A stretch of 64,000 nucleotides of DNA from an uncultured Phycisphaerales bacterium. Lineage in GTDB: Bacteria > Planctomycetota > Phycisphaerae > Sedimentisphaerales > Anaerobacaceae. The number at the start of each line of letters is the position of its first letter. Positions within the stretch are counted from its first letter, which is position 1. The notes below the pieces were generated by a model that ran no database searches, had not been told where the DNA came from, and saw only the letters and a program-made list of their open reading frames with translations. Shown piece by piece: positions 4,129 to 14,342 of this stretch. The translations under genes were made by a program, and so were the position numbers. Where the stretch lies: contig OY970359.1 in the NCBI GenBank assembly GCA_963718665.1, positions 320,001 to 384,000 of the forward strand. The letters are read 5' to 3'.

Positions 4129-5160
4129 TTATGGCTTTGCCTGCTGCTGAGTCATAAGATTTCGCTGGGTTTGTCCCAGAGCCGCCATGCCGCCGAGATT
4201 CATCGTATCGAGAACAGAACTCGGCACAATCATAAGCGAGCCGCCTGCCCGTATGCCTTCATAAACGATGTTCATTGCGCGAAGCTGCAAAGCAACAGGG
4301 TTATCCTGGTATCCTTTGGACGCCATGGCGAACTTTTCGGCAATTTCCATTTCCGCCTGTCCGAGTATTCCTCGCGCCTGCCGTTCTCTTTCGGCCTGGG
4401 CCTGCTTGGAAAGAACGTCCTTGAGGTTTTCAGGAATGGCTATGTCGCGGATTTCGATTGAGGTAACACTGATACCCCATGCCTCGGTCTTTGCTTCGAG
4501 CACCTTCTGAAGCGTCTTAGCCACCTTTTCCCGGTCGGAAAGAATTTCAGCAAGGGAATGGATGCCTACTATATCCCGAAGCGCGGTCTGAACAGCCAGT
4601 GAAATTGCCTGATAGTAGCTTTCGACCTCAAGCAGGGCTTTTTGGCTATCCCAGACATGCCAAAACGCTATTGCGTCGATATTCACAGGCACGGTATCGC
4701 TGGTAAGCATCGACTCGCTGTAAAAAGTTGTGGTGCGAACTCGCATATCCACAATACGGATAACACTTTCGAGGATGGGTAAAATCATAAAAAAGCCCGG
4801 GCCCCTGACAGAACTAAAACGACCTAATCGCAACACAAGGGCTTTATCCCATTCGGCCAAAAGGTGTGCGGACAAGGACCATAGTGCCGCAAGAATAAAA
4901 CCGACTATGAACGTGGCAACAGCAGGAGCCGTTCTGTCTGCCCGTAACAGAACTATGCCGCCAATAATTGTCCCTACAGCAATGATAACTGTAAGGAAGG
5001 TAATTGGTGCATAAGTCTTCATTCGCTGAATCTGGCGGACAGCATGGTCTTTATTAAGTTGTGTCATAGCATCATACATAGAGTTCTCCTTTTTGCGAAT
5101 AGTTTCAGTTAGTCCGGATGATACTTTTTCTGAAATGGCTTGTAGAAGATTGAAACGCAC
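4129..5160 (-). CDS. SPFH/Band 7 (stomatin-like) membrane protein
   Basis: Two N-terminal TM segments, LRLGRF...GPG, VDMRVRT, QTALRDIVG, IEIRDI, QAQAERERQA and ALQLR. An alternative start exists at ATG 5079. Confidence 0.9.
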   Translation of the reverse strand: MRFNLLQAISEKVSSGLTETIRKKENSMYDAMTQLNKDHAVRQIQRMKTYAPITFLTVIIAVGTIIGGIVLLRADRTAPAVATFIVGFILAALWSLSAHLLAEWDKALVLRLGRFSSVRGPGFFMILPILESVIRIVDMRVRTTTFYSESMLTSDTVPVNIDAIAFWHVWDSQKALLEVESYYQAISLAVQTALRDIVGIHSLAEILSDREKVAKTLQKVLEAKTEAWGISVTSIEIRDIAIPENLKDVLSKQAQAERERQARGILGQAEMEIAEKFAMASKGYQDNPVALQLRAMNIVYEGIRAGGSLMIVPSSVLDTMNLGGMAALGQTQRNLMTQQQAKP

Positions 5161-5193
5161 GAGATTCTCCTTTCCGCCGAAAGTATCGGCAAC

Positions 5194-5583
5194 TTATTCG
5201 GGTTGTTGTTTCTGCATACTCCGCAAGTATTCGACTATTTCATCGATGGTGAGATTTTGCAAATGGGCTCTTGAAATAAAATCTCTGCAAAGTTCTTCCA
5301 GCGCCCGCAGATTTTCACGATTCTTTTTCGCAGGAATAGACGGCTGCGGCCGGACAAATACACCTGTTCCCTGCTGCGTATCGAGAAAGCCGAGAAGCTG
5401 AAGCTGCGAATAGGCCTTTACCACAGTATTGGGGTTGACTTCCAGTTTTACAGCCAGGTCGCGGATAGTTGGTAATCTTTCGCCCGGCAGGATTGTGCCT
5501 GCGGAAATACTGGATAATATTATATCCACGAGTTGGCGATAAAAAGGCACATAGCTTTGTTTGTCTAACTTAAAGTTTATCAT
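5194..5583 (-). CDS. GntR-family (YtrA-like) regulator
   Basis: PFYRQL, GERLPTIRDLA, VNPNTVVKAY and GTGVFV; short 129-aa YtrA architecture. Confidence 0.93.
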   Translation of the reverse strand: MINFKLDKQSYVPFYRQLVDIILSSISAGTILPGERLPTIRDLAVKLEVNPNTVVKAYSQLQLLGFLDTQQGTGVFVRPQPSIPAKKNRENLRALEELCRDFISRAHLQNLTIDEIVEYLRSMQKQQPE

Positions 5584-5796: not shown

Positions 5797-6951
5797 TTAT
5801 CGGCCAGCGTCGTCCATATCAACGATATCCTCTTCTTCAACGGGCATAAACCACTTTTGGGCTATGAACGTTGGTATAACCGCGCTTGCGATTACAACAC
5901 CTACAAGGACTGAATACTGCACCTGGTCAATGTAGCCAGCGTTAAGCCCGAACAAGCTCGAAATCGTTCCAAAGGTAAGTCCCGTGCTCATCAATAATGT
6001 CGTGTATGTGCTTCCGTTGCGAATATATTTTCTCGCGAAGAAGTAAACGCCGATGAATTTGGTTGCTATTTTCAGCAGGAACAAAATAACAAATATCCCT
6101 CCTGCCGTGATTAGCATAGGCACCGATATTTTAAGCCCGCCAACGATGAAGAATACGGGCGTTATGAATGCATAAGCGACGGTACGAAGACGATCCCGGA
6201 CCGCTTTATTGCCGGACGTTTCGCCGAAATGGCGCGACATCAAAAGCCCTAATATAAACGCCGGCAAAATCGCGTGCCCGTCACCCAATTTGGCAAAATA
6301 CATAAATGCAATCAAAAGCAGGAATACGTATTTTATTTCCGGCTCAATCACCTTATTTTTCAACGTCTTGCTGTCAAACACTTTGTGTGAGAATTTTTCG
6401 GCAAAATATATCACATTCAGAGAAACCGATATGAAGACCAGCGTGTATATTGTCGGTTTGATGAAGAGAATGCTTAACGCAAGGGCGGTTCCCATTTCGG
6501 TAATGAAAGTTGACGCCATAAGAAACTTGCCTATCTGTGTTGATGACAATCCCGTCTCAACCAATACCGAATAGACCACAGCGAGCGAGGTCGTCGATAA
6601 AGCAGTGCCCGCAATCAGAGATGCCTGAAGAGACCAGCCCGCGACAAAAAATGTATAGAGGAAAACACCTAAGAACGGACACAGAAAAGAGAACCCGCCT
6701 ATGAGCATACTTTCTTTGAATTTCTCCCGCATCAAACGCGTATCAATCTCGGTCCCCGCTAAATACGTCAGGAGAATGCCCCCAAAACCGGCCAAGTACA
6801 TCATCCATTCTTCCGGCTTGAGACCAAAATACCCCCCTATCGCTCCGAGCAGGATTTCAATTATGGCTACCGAAAGCCCCAACTTCAAAGACAGCAAACT
6901 CGAAACGAAAATCAAACCACCTACAACCAGCGGAACCAAATCTGCATTCAT
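5797..6951 (-). CDS. Cation:proton antiporter (Na+/H+ exchanger/CPA superfamily) under a fluoride riboswitch
   Basis: About 12 hydrophobic segments; LTYLAGTEID, ALSTTSLAVV and PVFFIVGGLK motifs. Confidence 0.88.
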   Translation of the reverse strand: MNADLVPLVVGGLIFVSSLLSLKLGLSVAIIEILLGAIGGYFGLKPEEWMMYLAGFGGILLTYLAGTEIDTRLMREKFKESMLIGGFSFLCPFLGVFLYTFFVAGWSLQASLIAGTALSTTSLAVVYSVLVETGLSSTQIGKFLMASTFITEMGTALALSILFIKPTIYTLVFISVSLNVIYFAEKFSHKVFDSKTLKNKVIEPEIKYVFLLLIAFMYFAKLGDGHAILPAFILGLLMSRHFGETSGNKAVRDRLRTVAYAFITPVFFIVGGLKISVPMLITAGGIFVILFLLKIATKFIGVYFFARKYIRNGSTYTTLLMSTGLTFGTISSLFGLNAGYIDQVQYSVLVGVVIASAVIPTFIAQKWFMPVEEEDIVDMDDAGR

Positions 6952-6965
6952 ACTTTAATTTCCTT

Positions 6966-7002
6966 AAAAAGAAAAAACCTCTATCAATCTTTCGATAGAG
7001 GT
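6966..7002 (-). terminator. Second intrinsic terminator-like hairpin in the antiporter leader
   Basis: The minus strand reads ACCTCTATC-GAAAGATT-GATAGAGGT-TTTTTCTTTTT. Confidence 0.7.
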
Positions 7003-7004
7003 CT

Positions 7005-7038
7005 AAAAAATAACCCCTACCGTTGCCGGTAGAGGTTA
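7005..7038 (-). terminator. Riboswitch expression-platform terminator
   Basis: The minus strand reads TAACCTCTACCG-GCAA-CGGTAGGGGTTA-TTTTTT; the left arm overlaps the 3' end of the aptamer. Confidence 0.85.
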
Positions 7039-7085
7039 TTATCCCTATTTATGAGGGCGGTTATTAGGCGAACCTCATCGCCACC
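7029..7085 (-). ncRNA. Fluoride (crcB) riboswitch aptamer 1
   Basis: GGCGATGAGGTTCGCC-TAATAACCGCCCTCATAAATAGGG-ATAATAACCTCTAC: P1 GGCGA/TCGCC and pseudoknot GAGGT/ACCTC match the crcB motif. The upstream promoter is TTGAAA-17-TATTAT (7123-7095). Confidence 0.92.
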
Positions 7086-7171
7086 TTATTTGTAATAATA
7101 AAGTAACAGGTGTGAACTTTCAACACAATTTTTGATGTTTTTCGAGCCCCTTCACGAAGGTTCATATTGAT

Positions 7172-7200
7172 TTGACATTTACGGTTATAATGCCGATAAT
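7172..7200 (+). promoter_or_regulatory. Sigma70-type promoter of the dynamin-enolase operon
   Basis: TTGACA(7172-7177)-17-GATAAT(7195-7200), ending 9 nt before aptamer 2. Confidence 0.75.
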
Positions 7201-7209
7201 AAAAGATAA

Positions 7210-7257
7210 GGGGATGGAGTTCCCCATAACCGCTTGTATTGGCTGATAACTCCTGAC
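7210..7257 (+). ncRNA. Fluoride (crcB) riboswitch aptamer 2
   Basis: GGGGATGGAGTTCCCC-ATAACCGC-TTGTATTG-GCTGATAACTCCTGAC: P1 GGGGA/TCCCC and pseudoknot GGAGT/ACTCC, with compensatory changes relative to aptamer 1. Confidence 0.9.
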
Positions 7258-7324
7258 GATTTTCTGCGGCAATTTGGCTGTAGAAACGTAAAATAAGTTG
7301 CGCAAAAGATTAAGGAATGCGGTT

Positions 7325-9145
7325 ATGGGCGGCAATAACAAACCGAAAGAAAATCAAATTTACGCGCCACTAACTCTGAATATTCAAGAAGAGCTGGAAG
7401 ATGCCCTTGGTATTTTTGATTCACTTGGCACGGTATTTAGCTCGGATTCACAGAAGCTGCTCGAGCTCAAAGAGCGTATTAACGAAGGCCGATTCCATCT
7501 TGCGGTTTTAGGGCAATTTAAACGAGGCAAAAGCACCTTTCTCAACGCATTACTCGGGGAGACGCTACTGCCGACTTCTGTCGTGCCCCTGACGATGATT
7601 CCAACCTTTATTAAATCGGGCCCGGTCAGACGAGCCATAATTTATTACCAAGACCAAAATAAAAAAACCAATGAGATACAAGCGGATGAGCCGGAACAAT
7701 TGAATGTGTTTCTGCGAAAATTTGTAACGGAAGTTGAGAATCCAAAGAATCGTCTCGGCATATCGCAAGTCGAAGTTTTTCATCCTGCCTCTATTCTTCA
7801 GAACGGCGTAGTTATGATAGATACCCCCGGTATCGGTTCAACTTTGAAGCATAACACGGAGGCGACGCTCAATTTCCTTCCTCAGTGCGACGCTGCATTA
7901 TTTCTCGTTTCAGCCGACCCGCCCATAACTGATACGGAAGTGAAATTTCTTAAAGAAGTGAGGTCTAAAGTCCCGCGGCTGTTCTTTGTTTTAAACAAGA
8001 TTGATTACCTGTCCGGTGAAGATAAGGATAAGGCACTGGAATTCTTCAGGAAAGTTTTGGCAGAACAAGCCGAAATCGACTCTGATTCGCCTGTATTCTG
8101 TGTTTCTGCACAAAAGGGGCTTGAGGCAAAAGGAATGAAAGATTCCCTTGGGTGGGCAAAAAGCGGGATGGAAACAGCAGAAAAATACTTGGTTGGATTC
8201 CTGGCAAGCAAAAAAATAGAGGCACTGAATGAAGCGGTTGCCCTGAAAACCAATGATATCGTTACCGATTGCCTTATGAGAGTGAATCTCACAATCAATT
8301 CGCTCAAAATGCCGCTGGTAGATATGGAAAGGAAAATGGCCGTTTTCGAGGCCAAACTTAAGGAGTCACAAAACGAACGAATCGCTTTTGGCGACATCCT
8401 GACAGGGGAAAGAAAACGGATGGTCGAATCGCTTTATGATTATGCACAAACGCTTAAGAAAAAGGCCCGGTTGTATCTTGATAGCGTTGCCGTGGAACAC
8501 GCAACCAAGGGAGAGAAATCTCTGGATGAAGACACTGCTCAGGAGGCATTGGATGAGACAATCCCCGGATTCTGTGAGCATGAGGCCGGCCAAATGAGGA
8601 GGATATTTGACCAGCGAGCCACTGATTTATTAAAGAAGCACCAGAAGAAGGTAAATATTCTTGCTGAGTCCATCCGCAAAACGGCGGCCCAACTTTTCGA
8701 TATTTCGTATCAGCCGCTCCAACATCCTGCCGTTATGCCATCAATGCGGGACCTTTACTGGATTACTCAAAAGTGGGACACATCTTTTTTACCCATTCCA
8801 TTCGGTCTGCTGGAAAAAATTTTACCTAAGCGTATTCGTGAAGCAAGGGTTCATAAAAGGATAAAATCGCAGATTGACGACCTGGCAAATTACAACGTGG
8901 GCAAAATGCGGTTAGAGGTGCAGGAAAATATCGAAAACGCTTATGCTGCTTTCGCCAGAAATCTGGATTCATCTATGCAGGAGATTATTTCTTCGATTCA
9001 TATCGCCCTAAAAACAGCATTTACAAGAAAAAAAGACCAGTCCGAAACGATTGCAGATGAGATGCGAGAGTTAGAGTCGGCAGCTATGAAATTGGCTGAT
9101 ATCAAGAATAAACTTGTTCGGGATAGTGTCTATGCAAAACAATGA
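7325..9145 (+). CDS. Bacterial dynamin-like GTPase
   Basis: G1 GQFKRGKS, LLPTSVVPLT, G3 DTPG, G4 NKID and a long helical C-terminus. The ATG at 7325 has SD AAGGA. Confidence 0.9.
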   Translation: MGGNNKPKENQIYAPLTLNIQEELEDALGIFDSLGTVFSSDSQKLLELKERINEGRFHLAVLGQFKRGKSTFLNALLGETLLPTSVVPLTMIPTFIKSGPVRRAIIYYQDQNKKTNEIQADEPEQLNVFLRKFVTEVENPKNRLGISQVEVFHPASILQNGVVMIDTPGIGSTLKHNTEATLNFLPQCDAALFLVSADPPITDTEVKFLKEVRSKVPRLFFVLNKIDYLSGEDKDKALEFFRKVLAEQAEIDSDSPVFCVSAQKGLEAKGMKDSLGWAKSGMETAEKYLVGFLASKKIEALNEAVALKTNDIVTDCLMRVNLTINSLKMPLVDMERKMAVFEAKLKESQNERIAFGDILTGERKRMVESLYDYAQTLKKKARLYLDSVAVEHATKGEKSLDEDTAQEALDETIPGFCEHEAGQMRRIFDQRATDLLKKHQKKVNILAESIRKTAAQLFDISYQPLQHPAVMPSMRDLYWITQKWDTSFLPIPFGLLEKILPKRIREARVHKRIKSQIDDLANYNVGKMRLEVQENIENAYAAFARNLDSSMQEIISSIHIALKTAFTRKKDQSETIADEMRELESAAMKLADIKNKLVRDSVYAKQ

Positions 9146-9178
9146 ATTAAAAACTGAAAGGACTTTTAGGAAAATATT

Positions 9179-10453
9179 ATGAACAATCAAATTACATCGG
9201 TCAAAGCAATGGAAATTCTTGATTCTCGCGGGAATCCAACTATTCGCGTATTTTGCACGCTTAAAAACGGCATTACCGCCAAAGCGTCGGTTCCATCGGG
9301 CGCATCTACGGGAGAAAACGAAGCCGTCGAGCTACGCGACGGTGACAAAAAACGTTATGGCGGTAAAGGAGTGTTGAAGGCCGTTGAAAACGTAAATAAG
9401 CTCATAGCTCCCCAAGTAATCGGATTATACCCCGAAAACCAGGCCCGAATAGACGAGATTATGATTAAGTTGGACAGAACCCCCAACAAAAACAAACTCG
9501 GCGCAAACGCGATACTTGGGGTTTCAATGGCGGTCGCCCGCGCAGCGGCAAAAGCGGCAAATCGGCCTTTGTATGCTTATCTGGGAGAGCCATCAGCCGT
9601 GCGCCTGCCGATACCAATGATGAATATTCTCAACGGCGGAAAACACGCGGACAACAGCGTTGACTTCCAGGAATTTATGGTTATGCCAATAGGTGCGCCA
9701 ACTTTTGCCGAGGCCTTACGCTACGGCGCGGAAACATTTCACGCTTTGAAATCAATTTTGAAAAAGAAGGGATATACAACAAGCGTCGGGGACGAGGGCG
9801 GCTTCGCCCCCAATCTCAAAAGCAATGATGAGGCCTGCGACGTTATCGTTTCAGCAATTGAAGCGGCCGGGTATAAACCGGGAAAAGACATAGCCATTGC
9901 GCTGGACCCGGCAGCCAGCTCGTTTTATGAAGATGGAAAATATAATCTGGCAAAATCGGGGCAGGGACAAAAAACCAGTTCTCAAATGACTCAACTTTAC
10001 AAAGCATGGATTGAGAAATATCCGATTGTTTCTATCGAGGACGGCCTTGCGGAAAATGACTGGAAAGGATTTCAGGAGCATACTTCCGTACTTGGCGGCA
10101 AGATTCAGATAGTTGGAGATGATATTTATGTTACCAACACCGAATTTATAAAACGAGGAATTGAAGAACATACAACCAATGCCGTTCTTATAAAACTCAA
10201 CCAGATCGGCACCGTGACTGAGACAATTGAGGCAATCGAATTATGTCGTAAGGCGAAGTGGGGTTATGTAATTTCACATCGTTCGGGCGAGACAGAAGAT
10301 ACCTTTATGGCTGATTTCGCTGTCGCAATGGGCGGCGGTCAAATCAAGACCGGTTCTGCCTGCCGAAGCGAACGAATTGCCAAGTACAACAGGTTGTTGG
10401 AAATCGAAGCCGAATTAGGTAAGGCGGCGGTGTTCAGTAATCCTTTGGCATAG
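9179..10453 (+). CDS. eno: Enolase
   Basis: [43 protein letters not shown] and GQIKTGS. Confidence 0.98.
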
Positions 10454-10472
10454 CGTTGAAAATGATTTGATA

Positions 10473-10685
10473 ATGGGATTAACAAAGGCCTTATTCTGTA
10501 TAGCAGCCATCTTAAGCGCTTTGGCGGCGATTATGGCCTTTCTAATTATTTATGGAGAATACGCGCATCATTATCCTGACAAGCGAAAAGTATTGAAAAC
10601 AGCTCTTGAGGCAGGCATTTTTACTCTTCTTTTCTTTTTTGCTTTGGGGTTGTTGTTGGCAATATTTTTGCCGTTGTATTTTTAG
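10473..10685 (+). CDS. Small two-TM membrane protein
   Basis: Two hydrophobic helices separated by YGEYAHHYPDK; tightly packed in the operon. Confidence 0.7.
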   Translation: MGLTKALFCIAAILSALAAIMAFLIIYGEYAHHYPDKRKVLKTALEAGIFTLLFFFALGLLLAIFLPLYF

Positions 10686-10690
10686 AAAAG

Positions 10691-11371
10691 ATGGAAGAAA
10701 CAAAAGACACTCGCATAAGAATTATCGAGGCGTTTTCTTCGAATGGATGCCCTTTGTGCGATATGTTGCGCCGGGATGAGCTTGATAGTTTGTATCAATG
10801 GGTGGGGCAGAGCAATAATAATGCCAAAAACTCTGAGCAAATAAAACGACTTTTAGACGCAGGCGGATTCTGCAACTATCACTTTTGGCAATTCCAGGAA
10901 ATGAGTTCTCATTATGGTAGCGCAAACATAGGCGCTCAATTAATCGAAAAACTATTAGAAATCTTAAGAGCGGATAAACAAAAATGTTTTGTCGATGCGA
11001 GTAAAAATGGAGAGAATCATTTGAAGATTTGGTTAATCGAGTGTCCTCTATGCTGCGAGTTGAGCAAAAAAAAAAGAGAGTATCTTAAGGAGCTATCGGT
11101 TGTTTTGACGGACAATAAGCATAAGACAGAGTACGAACAGAACTGTGGCCTATGCATACCGCATCTTATGAAAATTACAGGTTATGTTGATAACGATTCG
11201 CTCCTGGATATCCTATATGAAACAGAAATATATCAATTAGAAAAAATTAAAAGCGATGCCTCCGGTTTCGTCAGTAAAAGGTATCCGCCTCAACGTTGGA
11301 AACAGACCGAAGACGAAAAGAAGTCATGGTTTCGAGCCATTGAAAAGATAGCAGGCAGACGTGGTGCTTAG
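10691..11371 (+). CDS. Cys/His-rich putative Zn-binding protein (DUF6062-like)
   Basis: Duplicated motif CPLC...GFCNYH / CPLC...GLCIPH and C-terminal W..AIEKIAG. Confidence 0.65.
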   Translation: MEETKDTRIRIIEAFSSNGCPLCDMLRRDELDSLYQWVGQSNNNAKNSEQIKRLLDAGGFCNYHFWQFQEMSSHYGSANIGAQLIEKLLEILRADKQKCFVDASKNGENHLKIWLIECPLCCELSKKKREYLKELSVVLTDNKHKTEYEQNCGLCIPHLMKITGYVDNDSLLDILYETEIYQLEKIKSDASGFVSKRYPPQRWKQTEDEKKSWFRAIEKIAGRRGA

Positions 11372-11386
11372 AGTGGAAATAGCATT

Positions 11387-11656
11387 ATGGTCTATAAAAA
11401 AGAGTGTCAGCGAGATAAGAACGAACGACGCGAAGACGCACTTCGACCAAGTCGTTATCTTGGTTATGACCACGATTCTCTGGGTATGCACTTGGTTTCG
11501 CGAGAGGCCTACAAAATTGCTGTCCATTGTTTCAGACGAGCTATCTGGCTAAACCCCTTTGAGCCGGTGTTCAAAAAACATTTAGCGCTGTGCCTGTATA
11601 AACTTGAACGAAACACCGAAGCGATTAAGCGGCCTGATAACAAAAAGGACAGGTAG
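11387..11656 (+). CDS. Small tetratricopeptide-repeat protein
   Basis: SLGMHL...AYKIAVHCFRRAIWLNP...KHLALCLYKL is a TPR pattern. Confidence 0.7.
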   Translation: MVYKKECQRDKNERREDALRPSRYLGYDHDSLGMHLVSREAYKIAVHCFRRAIWLNPFEPVFKKHLALCLYKLERNTEAIKRPDNKKDR

Positions 11657-11665
11657 GCACTCAAA

Positions 11666-11719
11666 GTAGAGGTCATCAGCTTAATCAATCGCTAAGCAGT
11701 TCAGGCGAACCTCATCGCC
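11666..11719 (-). ncRNA. Fluoride (crcB) riboswitch aptamer 3 (orphan, convergent)
   Basis: The minus strand reads GGCGATGAGGTTCGCC-TGAACT-GCTTAGCGATTGATTAAGC-TGATGACCTCTAC with intact P1, P2 and pseudoknot. The first 17 nt are identical to aptamer 1. Confidence 0.92.
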
Positions 11720-11879
11720 TTTATCGATATGAACGGAATTTTATGTTTTCCCTGACGTTATAATTCAGAACGCACATTAGAAAAGCCCCATCCTCGCCCA
11801 CGGCAATCACACGTTCATGGTTGCGGAATGCGAGCAGGCCGAAATGAAACGGCACAAAGTGCATATAATCCGGAAATAG

Positions 11880-14162
11880 TTAATGTATCTTGTCGCTTTC
11901 GCGACTAAGCAGATAACGCCAAAGGGGAAACTCTGTATATGGGTAGTTGTCAGTAATAATTGATGTGGTTTCCGTAAGGTCATCCATACTTTTTCCATCC
12001 CGCATATAAAAAAGATTAAGCAGTTGCTCGCTTGTTATGCAGACCTTATCAATTTCACTCAAATCGTTTACAAGCTGAGGGTTTGTAAAGGCGTGCTCTA
12101 TCTTTGACCGGTCAACATTTGTCGGGGCAGAAGTGCCGAGCAGGTAAAAGCCCCGGTTGTGCGGGCCTTTCCAGAGGGTCATGTTCTTGAAAACGGAATA
12201 GAAAGTTTTACATATATACATACTATCCTGCTGGTTGCCCCCCAGGAACCACAGGCACATAACGCCGCCCGGCGTCAGGTGCTCCCTACACAGCGTAAAA
12301 AATTCCCGGGTATAAAGATTTACCGTGCCGGCATTGTAAACGGGAGGCGAAGGGTCAACAATAATTACGTCGTATTTGTCGGGACTCAGCAGCAAGAAGT
12401 TACGACCATCGTTGGCAATGAAACGGACATTCGGACGGCTTATAACTTTTTGTGCGTCGCTGTGATAATAGCCGAAATATTTATAAACCTCAGGCACAAG
12501 CTCAACACATGTAATATTCAAATCATCATAAATACACGCGGACCTCATGGTAGTCCCCATCCCGAAGCATATCATGAGCATTTCTTTCGGTTTATCAGCC
12601 AGCATAACCGGAAGATGTGCCATAAGTTTTGTCTCCGTGCACAAAAGGGTCTGCCCACAGCCGTTAATCCAGAGTTGCTTGATGCCGTCTCTGACAAAGC
12701 TGGTTACGGTTCCTTCCACGGTCTCCCGGTTGCGATATATCTCATAGTGGTTTGCGCCTTGTGCAATTCTGCTTTCAATGACGGCCAGAAACGGGTCTCT
12801 GCCTTTAAATCCAAGTGCAAGCAATATAACAATCGGAACTATTAGCAGAAACCTCAGTTTGTAACCCTTCGACGTGCGAGGTTCGAGCCACAAAAGAACC
12901 AATCCGAGCATGATATTTACGAAACCCAGTATAATTACGGTTTTGCTGGAGCCCAGCAGACTGATGAAAAGGAAGCCCGTAAAAAGAGAGCCGGTAACAT
13001 TGCCCACCGCATTAAATGTATACAGGATACCCACGGAAGTGCCAGCAAGGTTCGTGCTTTTGGCATAGCATAATGAGGCAATAGGAAATATGGCGCCAAA
13101 AAGAAGAGTAAGCGGCAGCACCAACACAACCGGCGAAAGCACCCTCGTTAAAAGATTGGTATCCAACGGACCGAAAAGATAAAGGTTGAAAATCGACAAA
13201 GCACCGATGGCCAACTCCAGGATTCCAAAAATTAACAGTGGAGTCCTGAGACGGTCCACATACCTGTTCACAAACATACTGCCAATCGCCACTCCTACAA
13301 GGAATATTGCCAACATACCGGAAAACGCGTATATCGAGGTCTGCAGAAACAGAATTAGCTGTCGCGTCCATACCACCTCATAGGCCAGTGCCGTAAATCC
13401 GCTTATCATAAACGCGATGAGCACCATTTTTCGCACCGTGTCCGAGTACATCGAAATGCGGTTGCCCACAGCATTGACAGCTACGTCGCGCGTGACGCCG
13501 GTTTGTCCGGTGAATCGTAATTGCCTGCGGTAAATAACAAATGTTATGAAACCGACCACAAGGTTTATTAACGCCCCAATGAATATGGTATTCCACTCGC
13601 CGATTGCGCCGATGGTAATGAAACCGCTCAGGAGAACACCCAAAACAGCTCCTAACGTATTCAATCCATACAACAAGCTGAAGTTCTTTCCGAACATCCC
13701 GCCTTGCCTGACAAGGTAGCTGGTCAAAGCAGGAAGTGTGCCGCCCATCAGCACCGTAGGAACCAGCAGCGAGAGAAAGGACACAACCACTTTTGACAAT
13801 GAAATCGCGGCGGCGCTTTGATGAGTGATTATAGAAACGAATTTGTAAACATCAACCGAGCCAATCAGGATGAAGGGTGTGACAATGGCAAAAACTGCGA
13901 GCCATATCTGCAACAGAGCAAAAATTTTCAACTGGTCATTGCGTTTATCAACAAGCCGGCCGAATATAAAGCTGCCCAGGGCCAACCCAGCCATAAAGGC
14001 GGCCAATGTTACGGCTGTGGCATAAGCGGTTACGCCAATTGTTCTTGAAAGGATTCTAAGATAGACAACCTCATAGATAAGGCCGCTGATTCCTGACGCG
14101 AAAAACAACAAAAAAACAATCTTTTGTGATACCGCCTGTCTGCTTGTTTTCACTTCTCCCAT
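11880..14162 (-). CDS. Fused membrane (MFS-like)/spermidine synthase-like SAM-dependent transferase
   Basis: Duplicated TM module (SGISGLIYEVVY / SGFTALAYEVVW, LYGLNTLGA) plus CVELVPEV, DGRNFL, YDVIIVDP, NLYTREFF and ITDNYP. Confidence 0.85.
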   Translation of the reverse strand: MGEVKTSRQAVSQKIVFLLFFASGISGLIYEVVYLRILSRTIGVTAYATAVTLAAFMAGLALGSFIFGRLVDKRNDQLKIFALLQIWLAVFAIVTPFILIGSVDVYKFVSIITHQSAAAISLSKVVVSFLSLLVPTVLMGGTLPALTSYLVRQGGMFGKNFSLLYGLNTLGAVLGVLLSGFITIGAIGEWNTIFIGALINLVVGFITFVIYRRQLRFTGQTGVTRDVAVNAVGNRISMYSDTVRKMVLIAFMISGFTALAYEVVWTRQLILFLQTSIYAFSGMLAIFLVGVAIGSMFVNRYVDRLRTPLLIFGILELAIGALSIFNLYLFGPLDTNLLTRVLSPVVLVLPLTLLFGAIFPIASLCYAKSTNLAGTSVGILYTFNAVGNVTGSLFTGFLFISLLGSSKTVIILGFVNIMLGLVLLWLEPRTSKGYKLRFLLIVPIVILLALGFKGRDPFLAVIESRIAQGANHYEIYRNRETVEGTVTSFVRDGIKQLWINGCGQTLLCTETKLMAHLPVMLADKPKEMLMICFGMGTTMRSACIYDDLNITCVELVPEVYKYFGYYHSDAQKVISRPNVRFIANDGRNFLLLSPDKYDVIIVDPSPPVYNAGTVNLYTREFFTLCREHLTPGGVMCLWFLGGNQQDSMYICKTFYSVFKNMTLWKGPHNRGFYLLGTSAPTNVDRSKIEHAFTNPQLVNDLSEIDKVCITSEQLLNLFYMRDGKSMDDLTETTSIITDNYPYTEFPLWRYLLSRESDKIH

Positions 14163-14225
14163 TTTCTCCTTTTTGCCCGGATTGGAGCAATAGACCTACC
14201 CTGGATAGATAATGCGTCGAAAGAC

Positions 14226-14296
14226 CTGGGGTACTAGGATTCGGACCTAGACTAACTGATCCAGAGTCAGTTGTGCTACCATTACACTATACCCCA
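14226..14296 (-). tRNA. tRNA-Gln(CTG)
   Basis: TGGGGTATAGTGTAATGGTAGCACAACTGACTCTGGATCAGTTAGTCTAGGTCCGAATCCTAGTACCCCAG folds as a cloverleaf with anticodon CTG. Confidence 0.93.
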
Positions 14297-14342
14297 ATAA
14301 AAGTATTGACCGCAGGTGCACATCTAATTTACACTGATTGTT

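Follow-up and report, generated by a model that had tools for sequence, protein, structure and literature searches.

Fluoride enters bacteria as hydrogen fluoride; it lowers the cytoplasmic pH, dissipates the proton-motive force and acts as an enolase inhibitor (PMC11139923, PMC5533749). The genes controlled by fluoride riboswitches include those for enolase and pyrophosphatase, which are fluoride-inhibited enzymes (PMC11139923), and cation/proton antiporters are another known client class (PMC11139923, PMC2864571). Bacterial dynamin-like proteins (DLPs), among them the stress-associated membrane proteins DynA and IniA (PMC8844932, PMC6715688, PMC6104087), are mostly encoded by paired genes (PMC6104087). 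Here we describe a locus that joins the two fields, in a 64,000-nt stretch of DNA (the window) from an uncultured Phycisphaerales bacterium. A fluoride riboswitch precedes a gene for a dynamin-like GTPase, and four co-oriented genes follow, encoding an enolase and three small proteins. The stable unit of this locus is the riboswitch together with a dynamin of a dedicated subfamily, and this pairing recurs in many uncultured bacteria, which suggests a so far undescribed component of their response to fluoride stress.

An initial annotation, made from the sequence, had named linkage of the dynamin to the riboswitch in other genomes as one check, and this linkage was found. A metagenome scan with a 41-sequence dynamin alignment gave 572 confirmed stretches, of which the best 80 were kept; close relatives are over-represented among these, and their taxa are unlabelled. 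A covariance model (R1) built on 21 Rfam matches, none from the 80 loci, detected a same-strand aptamer no more than 400 nt ahead of the dynamin match in 67/80 loci. The count was 61/70 when only loci whose upstream sequence reached 400 nt or more were considered, and 37/41 when taken per 70%-identity cluster. On recheck with the Rfam model, 10 of 12 weak-scoring direct matches were confirmed (all but L047 and L103), and none of four negative loci gave a match. Among phylum genomes the dynamin protein was matched in 14/301, and RF01734 lay within 1.5 kb in 11/14 other loci (9 of the 11 from one family). In contrast, model R1 gave no aptamer within 1.5 kb on either side at 25 further Dynamin_N loci from the phylum (these include L107, the weakest match of the phylum dynamin search); nor did Rfam in the 20 of these that were also searched with it (0/20), and housekeeping enolase loci had none (0/29). 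Named homologues of the dynamin belong to Planctomycetota, Bacillota (Moorella), Desulfomonile and Pseudomonadota; those of Moorella/Neomoorella species show 43-45% identity. A single-protein search of genome contigs returned L011 alone, from a Phycisphaerales metagenome-assembled genome; plasmids gave no dynamin match at E 1e-30 and viral contigs one partial match. Two loci (L059 1278-1342 and L082 90-154, both minus strand) seemingly carry two fluoride aptamers in tandem on one leader, with the second copy visible in the downstream sequence.

The features of the locus, in window coordinates, are:
7172-7200, plus strand: sigma-70-like promoter (-35 TTGACA, 17 nt, -10 GATAAT), from consensus score and conservation in relatives
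7201-7262, plus strand: fluoride riboswitch aptamer, predicted to control the dynamin gene
7225-7327, plus strand: predicted translational expression platform, from ViennaRNA folds
7325-9145, plus strand: bacterial dynamin-like GTPase of 606 aa with a BDLP/IniA-type fold, from Pfam Dynamin_N, AlphaFold2 (AF2) and Foldseek
9179-10453, plus strand: second enolase, of a clade seen beside these dynamins
10473-10685, plus strand: 70-aa two-helix membrane protein of an unnamed family
10691-11371, plus strand: DUF6062 protein, whose two CxxC...CxxH sets probably bind metal
11387-11656, plus strand: C-terminally truncated TPR-like protein, judged by length against homologues, adjoining the third aptamer
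11660-11728, minus strand: third fluoride aptamer (Rfam, 52.5 bits), apparently a stranded relic of the antiporter's riboswitch
7023-7091, minus strand: divergent fluoride riboswitch (Rfam, 44 bits) with a predicted overlapping intrinsic terminator (terminator-like site 7004-6975) and a second hairpin
5797-6951, minus strand: CPA2-like cation/proton antiporter (PF00999 E 4.2e-35; TIGR00932 95.9 bits, under the cut-off of 238.3)
14226-14296, minus strand: tRNA (Rfam; anticodon CUG, taken from the sequence to be Gln) at the border of a variable gene site

The crcB-type fluoride aptamer named in the initial annotation matched RF01734 over its full length (model positions 1-64 of 64) with 49.9 bits against a gathering threshold of 34 (E 7.9e-11). 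Across 21 aptamers, P1, the pseudoknot and P3 covary: 98% of cells are paired, 7/14 pairs change on both sides and the covariation score is reached by 0/500 shuffles, for sequences that are related and were chosen by the Rfam model. In the ligand-free fold predicted by ViennaRNA, 7225-7233 is bound to 7319-7327, a segment that includes the start ATG (7325), and 7251-7254 to the Shine–Dalgarno (SD) sequence at 7313-7316. When the aptamer was forced to form, the unpaired probability rose from 0.27 to 0.91 for the SD and from 0.04 to 0.44 for the AUG. The shift had the same direction in all four relatives examined (L011, L027, L028 and L071; 5/5 with the window). More broadly, 59/67 loci (14.8 in shuffles) have, no more than 60 nt away, a segment that could base-pair with the 3′ end of the aptamer. 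Sites combining an SD with a start codon were counted near the aptamer in 49/67 loci, a figure that has no control and is given no weight here. No U-tailed terminator was seen 3′ of the aptamer in predicted folds. The dynamin riboswitch therefore looks translational, hiding the dynamin start codon in these folding models. Since the predicted platform covers the dynamin's own start, the switch appears to be tied to the dynamin itself, and we consider it highly probable that fluoride induces the dynamin. For the same reason, fluoride control of genes 2-5 would be indirect, through coupling or polarity. The promoter proposed upstream of the aptamer is the best of 10 consensus matches, agreeing at 11/12 positions and kept in L011, L027, L028 and L071, although the number of such matches is not above chance (11.4 ± 2.7 in shuffles).

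The start of the dynamin gene had been placed at TTG 7298, but ATG 7325 is likelier, giving 606 aa behind the SD at 7313-7316, where the closest homologues mostly have 605-610 aa. The GTPase motifs are intact as first described (G1 residues 63-71, G3 166-169, G4 224-227) and are invariant in 41 homologues, and the protein matches Pfam Dynamin_N with 103.6 bits (cut-off 27; E 1.5e-29). Its AF2 model (mean pLDDT, the per-residue model confidence, 81) has long helices at 297-457 and 502-605, and the top Foldseek matches were 2j69 (E 1.4e-20; TM 0.47 over 668 columns) and 6j72 (E 1.8e-20); BDLP and IniA are its best matches by sequence as well. It stays far below the NCBIfam cut-offs for DynA (NF052648, 79.5 against 1600 bits) and LeoA (NF041922, 27 against 325 bits). 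The tip of the trunk has conserved aromatic residues and low pLDDT; as it is poorly predicted, a lipid-binding element is not established. By analogy with its better-known relatives, we lean slightly towards membrane maintenance as the job of this dynamin. Several other genes recur around the subfamily. A second, longer dynamin-like gene stands in the same island in L029, L032, L033 and L086, so that paired DLPs exist in some relatives. A zinc-ribbon/HEAT-repeat protein, read from the sequence as fused at times to a HAD-like domain, recurs right behind the dynamin (L029, L030, L032, L033, L037, L039, L073 and others), and a major facilitator superfamily (MFS) transporter family recurs in 20 dynamin loci.

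The dynamin could instead be a direct effector or target of fluoride. GDP-Mg-fluoride would lock the GTPase dimer in a transition-state-like form, such that fluoride would both induce the protein and switch on its assembly, or would inhibit it so that more is needed. Metal-fluoride complexes mimic the GTPase transition state, and transition-like mitofusin/Fzo1 structures are among the fold matches of the model, in which all G motifs are intact. Furthermore, enolase and pyrophosphatase, other clients of the riboswitch class, are fluoride-inhibited enzymes (PMC11139923). However, dosage compensation requires an essential housekeeping copy, whereas the subfamily occurs in 2/24 genus genomes and always as the riboswitch-linked copy; the genome's other Dynamin_N-like open reading frame is distant and has no riboswitch. 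The missing housekeeping copy speaks against the dynamin as a backup target, not against it as an effector. Overall, we view a direct action of fluoride on the GTPase as possible but unlikely, and retain induced membrane maintenance as the preferred reading.

The five co-oriented genes reported after the aptamer are all present by open reading frame calls and family profile searches. They could form one obligate fluoride module, co-transcribed and co-regulated: the gaps are 5-33 nt, no terminator-like match lies at any plus-strand gene junction, each partner recurs near these dynamins, and the order is the same in a strain from a second study. In that strain (94% identical; run X4), one contig covers 9097-11678 with the dynamin 3′ end through the TPR gene intact. 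Nevertheless, the notion of a fixed five-gene module did not hold up. None of the 80 loci (36 of at least 9 kb, 44 under 9 kb) has all four downstream partners and 2/80 have three, and close relatives show nested losses: L027 has dynamin and enolase only, L011 the dynamin only, and L202 enolase, the two-helix protein and an untruncated TPR gene that leads into the antiporter, but no DUF6062. Together with the truncated TPR gene of the window and a switch that looks translational, this makes an obligate module quite improbable.

The partners nevertheless show a clear association with the dynamin. Over the 80 loci, enolase was found in 26, the antiporter in 18, DUF6062 in 15, the two-helix protein in 13 and the TPR gene in 4; related loci also contain USP-like, MutS-like ATPase and H+-pyrophosphatase genes, which are known fluoride-riboswitch clients. 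DUF6062 and the two-helix protein are strongly enriched, since they occur in 5/400 and 0/400 other phylum genomes, respectively; 3 of the 5 DUF6062 genomes have an aptamer on the fetched stretch. The fourth gene was correctly described as a duplicated CxxC/CxxH protein and is a catalogued member of DUF6062 (PF19538, 60 bits against a cut-off of 27, E 3e-16). Its two CxxC...CxxH sets (C20/C23/C61/H64 and C118/C121/C155/H158) are invariant in 22 sequences and are probable metal sites. Fusions of DUF6062 to dynamin GTPases in L221, L030, L079 and L100 suggest a functional partnership. The DUF6062 AF2 model (pLDDT 81) has no solved-fold match at E ≤ 0.001 (best Z 5.2), from which a new fold does not follow, and the literature searched gave no function and no paper for the family. 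The third gene encodes a 70-72 aa protein with two predicted transmembrane helices, the motif AF.I.Y.EY..H and no family at cut-off. It belongs to a real, unnamed family enriched beside these dynamins, with 412 representatives at E ≤ 0.001, no common Pfam domain in Atlas clusters and no relatives in viral contigs. This protein was considered as a Fluc/CrcB channel and rejected, having 70 aa against a four-helix protomer of about 125 aa and no PF02537 match. The last gene is TPR-like as first proposed (TPR_1, 24.4 bits, under the cut-off of 27.8), but it is not an intact small protein: at 89 aa it is about 25-35 aa shorter than homologues of 115-124 aa, and the full-length homologue in L030 passes TPR_16 and TPR_19.

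In addition to the dynamin's aptamer, the Rfam search found two fluoride riboswitches absent from the initial annotation. The one at 7023-7091 precedes the divergent antiporter and has a classical overlapping terminator in predicted folds, while the one at 11660-11728 points into the operon 3′ end. Orthologues of this third aptamer stand directly before the antiporter in L196, L197, L199, L200 and L203, but in the window an upstream deletion has removed 8 nt with its putative -35 box, and the terminator 3′ strand has been lost. The third aptamer and the truncated TPR gene hence both look like relics of breakage. An antisense regulatory role for this aptamer was rejected, given these losses and the position of its orthologue ahead of the antiporter in congeners. 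An assembly artefact was also rejected: a contig in run X1, possibly the source sample, bridges 10467-12522, and the 94%-identical X4 contig spans 9097-11678.

Across the genus, the stretch between an exonuclease III-like gene and the tRNA differs from genome to genome. The cassette takes nested forms, with five genes in the window, dynamin and enolase in L027, the dynamin and the 5′ half of the third aptamer in L011, and none in L196 and L197; run X4 also holds the L011-type joint (9172-11683). In L196 and L197, window 5797-7082 abuts window 11666-14300, and a single third-type aptamer is linked to the terminator of the first aptamer and to the antiporter, a pattern that fits cassette loss by recombination between two direct-repeat aptamers. 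Stranded antiporter-type aptamers also lie before unrelated genes in L201 (5075-7665, genome G377) and L198 (6247-6315, G354), and L201 has a tandem row of three aptamers spaced by about 1.25 kb, of which two adjoin remnants of the antiporter 3′ end. Aptamers may therefore serve as recombination points at this site. Judged from these arrangements, the locus is probably a mobile, modular cassette at a hypervariable tRNA-side site, eroding from its 3′ end. That aptamers merely pile up at a recombination-prone site, with the dynamin behind one by accident, agrees with the stranded copies in L198 and L201 and the relic in the window but is very improbable, because the pairing in 67/80 dynamin loci against 0/25 controls spans 37-88% protein identity and the predicted platform fits the dynamin's own start codon in 5/5 close sequences. 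Other neighbours also vary. Downstream of the antiporter, 4129-5583 (minus strand) holds a GntR regulator and an SPFH/band-7 gene, a second membrane-stress-type pair that is absent from L011 and L027. Between the relic aptamer and the tRNA, 11880-14162 (minus strand) holds a fused MFS/spermidine-synthase-like gene (NF037959) that only some congeners have. In L202 (1-1968, G349), a membrane H+-pyrophosphatase lies directly downstream of the riboswitch-led antiporter.

The enolase of the island had been suggested to be a backup copy, and a separate housekeeping enolase was indeed found in the genome. The island enzyme (TIGR01060, 666.5 bits against a cut-off of 300) falls into one group with 9 further dynamin-neighbour enolases, separate from the housekeeping enolases of the class. 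Enolase has been recruited more than once, as the remaining dynamin-neighbour enolases belong to different clades. All 11 checked residues, which we take to be the catalytic and Mg-ligand positions, are identical in 24 enolases; the enzyme is thus standard in these positions, which speak neither for nor against fluoride tolerance. The housekeeping enolase (G000:C1 near 1764500; L004 1495-2778, minus strand) is a mosaic with a native N-domain and tail and an island-type catalytic barrel (about residues 160-401). Its residues 1-140 are 92% identical to the housekeeping type of the genus. Over residues 141-400 it shares 92% identity with the island enzyme against 69% with the housekeeping type, and the tail is of the housekeeping type again. 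The same mosaic occupies the same chromosomal site in five further complete genes (G354, G355, G356, G362 and G365) and a partial one (G364), whereas 10 other enolase genes examined in the genus are pure. A collapsed assembly was rejected, as the mosaic is present in six genomes and has only 81-85% DNA identity to the island copies in the window and in L027. At the DNA level the six mosaic barrels share 93-98% identity, but the N-domains split into two groups that are only 84-86% similar, a hint that the barrel spread later. That it was captured several times independently is not shown, since the test did not reject monophyly for the N-domains of the six mosaics (p-AU 0.135). No island enolase copy was seen in the five other complete mosaic carriers. 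The native, island and chimeric alleles amount to a natural domain-swap experiment on whether fluoride-tolerant enolases exist.

The three aptamers of the window account for all fluoride riboswitches detected in the genome (2.61 Mb, 94.6% complete). A PF02537 search of this genome gave no CrcB match, and CrcB was seen by a sequence motif in 3/80 dynamin loci. The genome's one CLC-CBS protein has GREGP, which does not match the CLC-F signature.

We propose that, without fluoride, the aptamer strand would pair with the dynamin SD and start codon, and that fluoride binding would free both. The divergent antiporter would restore pH and the extra enolase glycolytic flux, while the dynamin, like DynA or IniA, would bind and seal or remodel the stressed membrane. 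DUF6062 is probably a cofactor of the dynamin, judging from the fusions, the two-helix protein a possible membrane partner, and genes 2-5 would follow the dynamin by translational coupling or polarity. Several observations count against this scheme. The dynamin is dispensable, being present in 2/24 genus genomes against 11/24 for the fluoride riboswitch, and the stranded aptamers before unrelated genes mean that an aptamer alone is no proof of selected control. The 80 loci, as the best of 572, lean to close relatives, and the control loci cover only 1.5 kb on either side. The dynamin has no clear lipid-binding paddle, as trunk-tip residues 472-481 are poorly predicted and lack a strongly hydrophobic window, and it is single, unlike most bacterial DLP genes. 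Taking these together, we favour with moderate confidence a GTPase that fluoride induces and that maintains the membrane, as part of a modular stress cassette, by analogy with characterised DLPs. A bolder extension seems doubtful: the dynamin, DUF6062 and the two-helix protein would form a defence apparatus without Fluc or CLC-F that seals the membrane or sheds vesicles, with fluoride also acting on the GTPase, and the island enolase barrel would be fluoride-tolerant, captured by the housekeeping gene through recombination and spread in the genus, leaving the island copy dispensable.

For most bacterial DLPs no inducing signal is defined. A subfamily coupled to a fluoride sensor supplies one and makes the cellular role of a DLP directly testable. 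If true, our proposal would extend fluoride resistance by a membrane-remodelling arm in organisms in which neither a Fluc nor a CLC-F exporter was detected, and would be useful for organofluorine bioremediation.

Compared with Nostoc BDLP (2j68/2j69), IniA (6j72), DynA and LeoA, the window dynamin is alike in GTPase motifs and overall fold, but it shares 17-18% identity with them and is a single gene with a fluoride riboswitch and a DUF6062 partner or fusion. Compared with described fluoride (crcB) riboswitch regulons (RF01734), the aptamer class is the same and the clients are alike: antiporter and enolase here, and MutS-like ATPase, USP-like protein and pyrophosphatase in related loci (PMC2864571, PMC11139923). 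However, the first gene here encodes a dynamin-like GTPase, no CrcB was found and control looks translational. A dynamin is named in neither PMC11139923 nor PMC2864571, as far as these were consulted. A link of dynamin, DUF6062 or the two-helix family to fluoride was not found in the literature searched, which lay outside most subscription journals, and such genes could be listed under other names. A further parallel is the Enterobacter cloacae FRM operon, ppaC-uspA-eno-gpmA-crcB-orf5249 (PMC5533749), which, like the window locus, is riboswitch-led, sits on a mobile island and carries an extra enolase, and which offers a model for rescue of glycolysis by dosage. The window locus, known from sequence alone, differs in having no crcB, ppaC or gpmA and in encoding a dynamin, DUF6062, the two-helix protein and a TPR protein in their place. 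In conclusion, the riboswitch class and its antiporter and enolase clients were already known, whereas the link of the dynamin, DUF6062 and the two-helix family to fluoride appears new against the literature searched.

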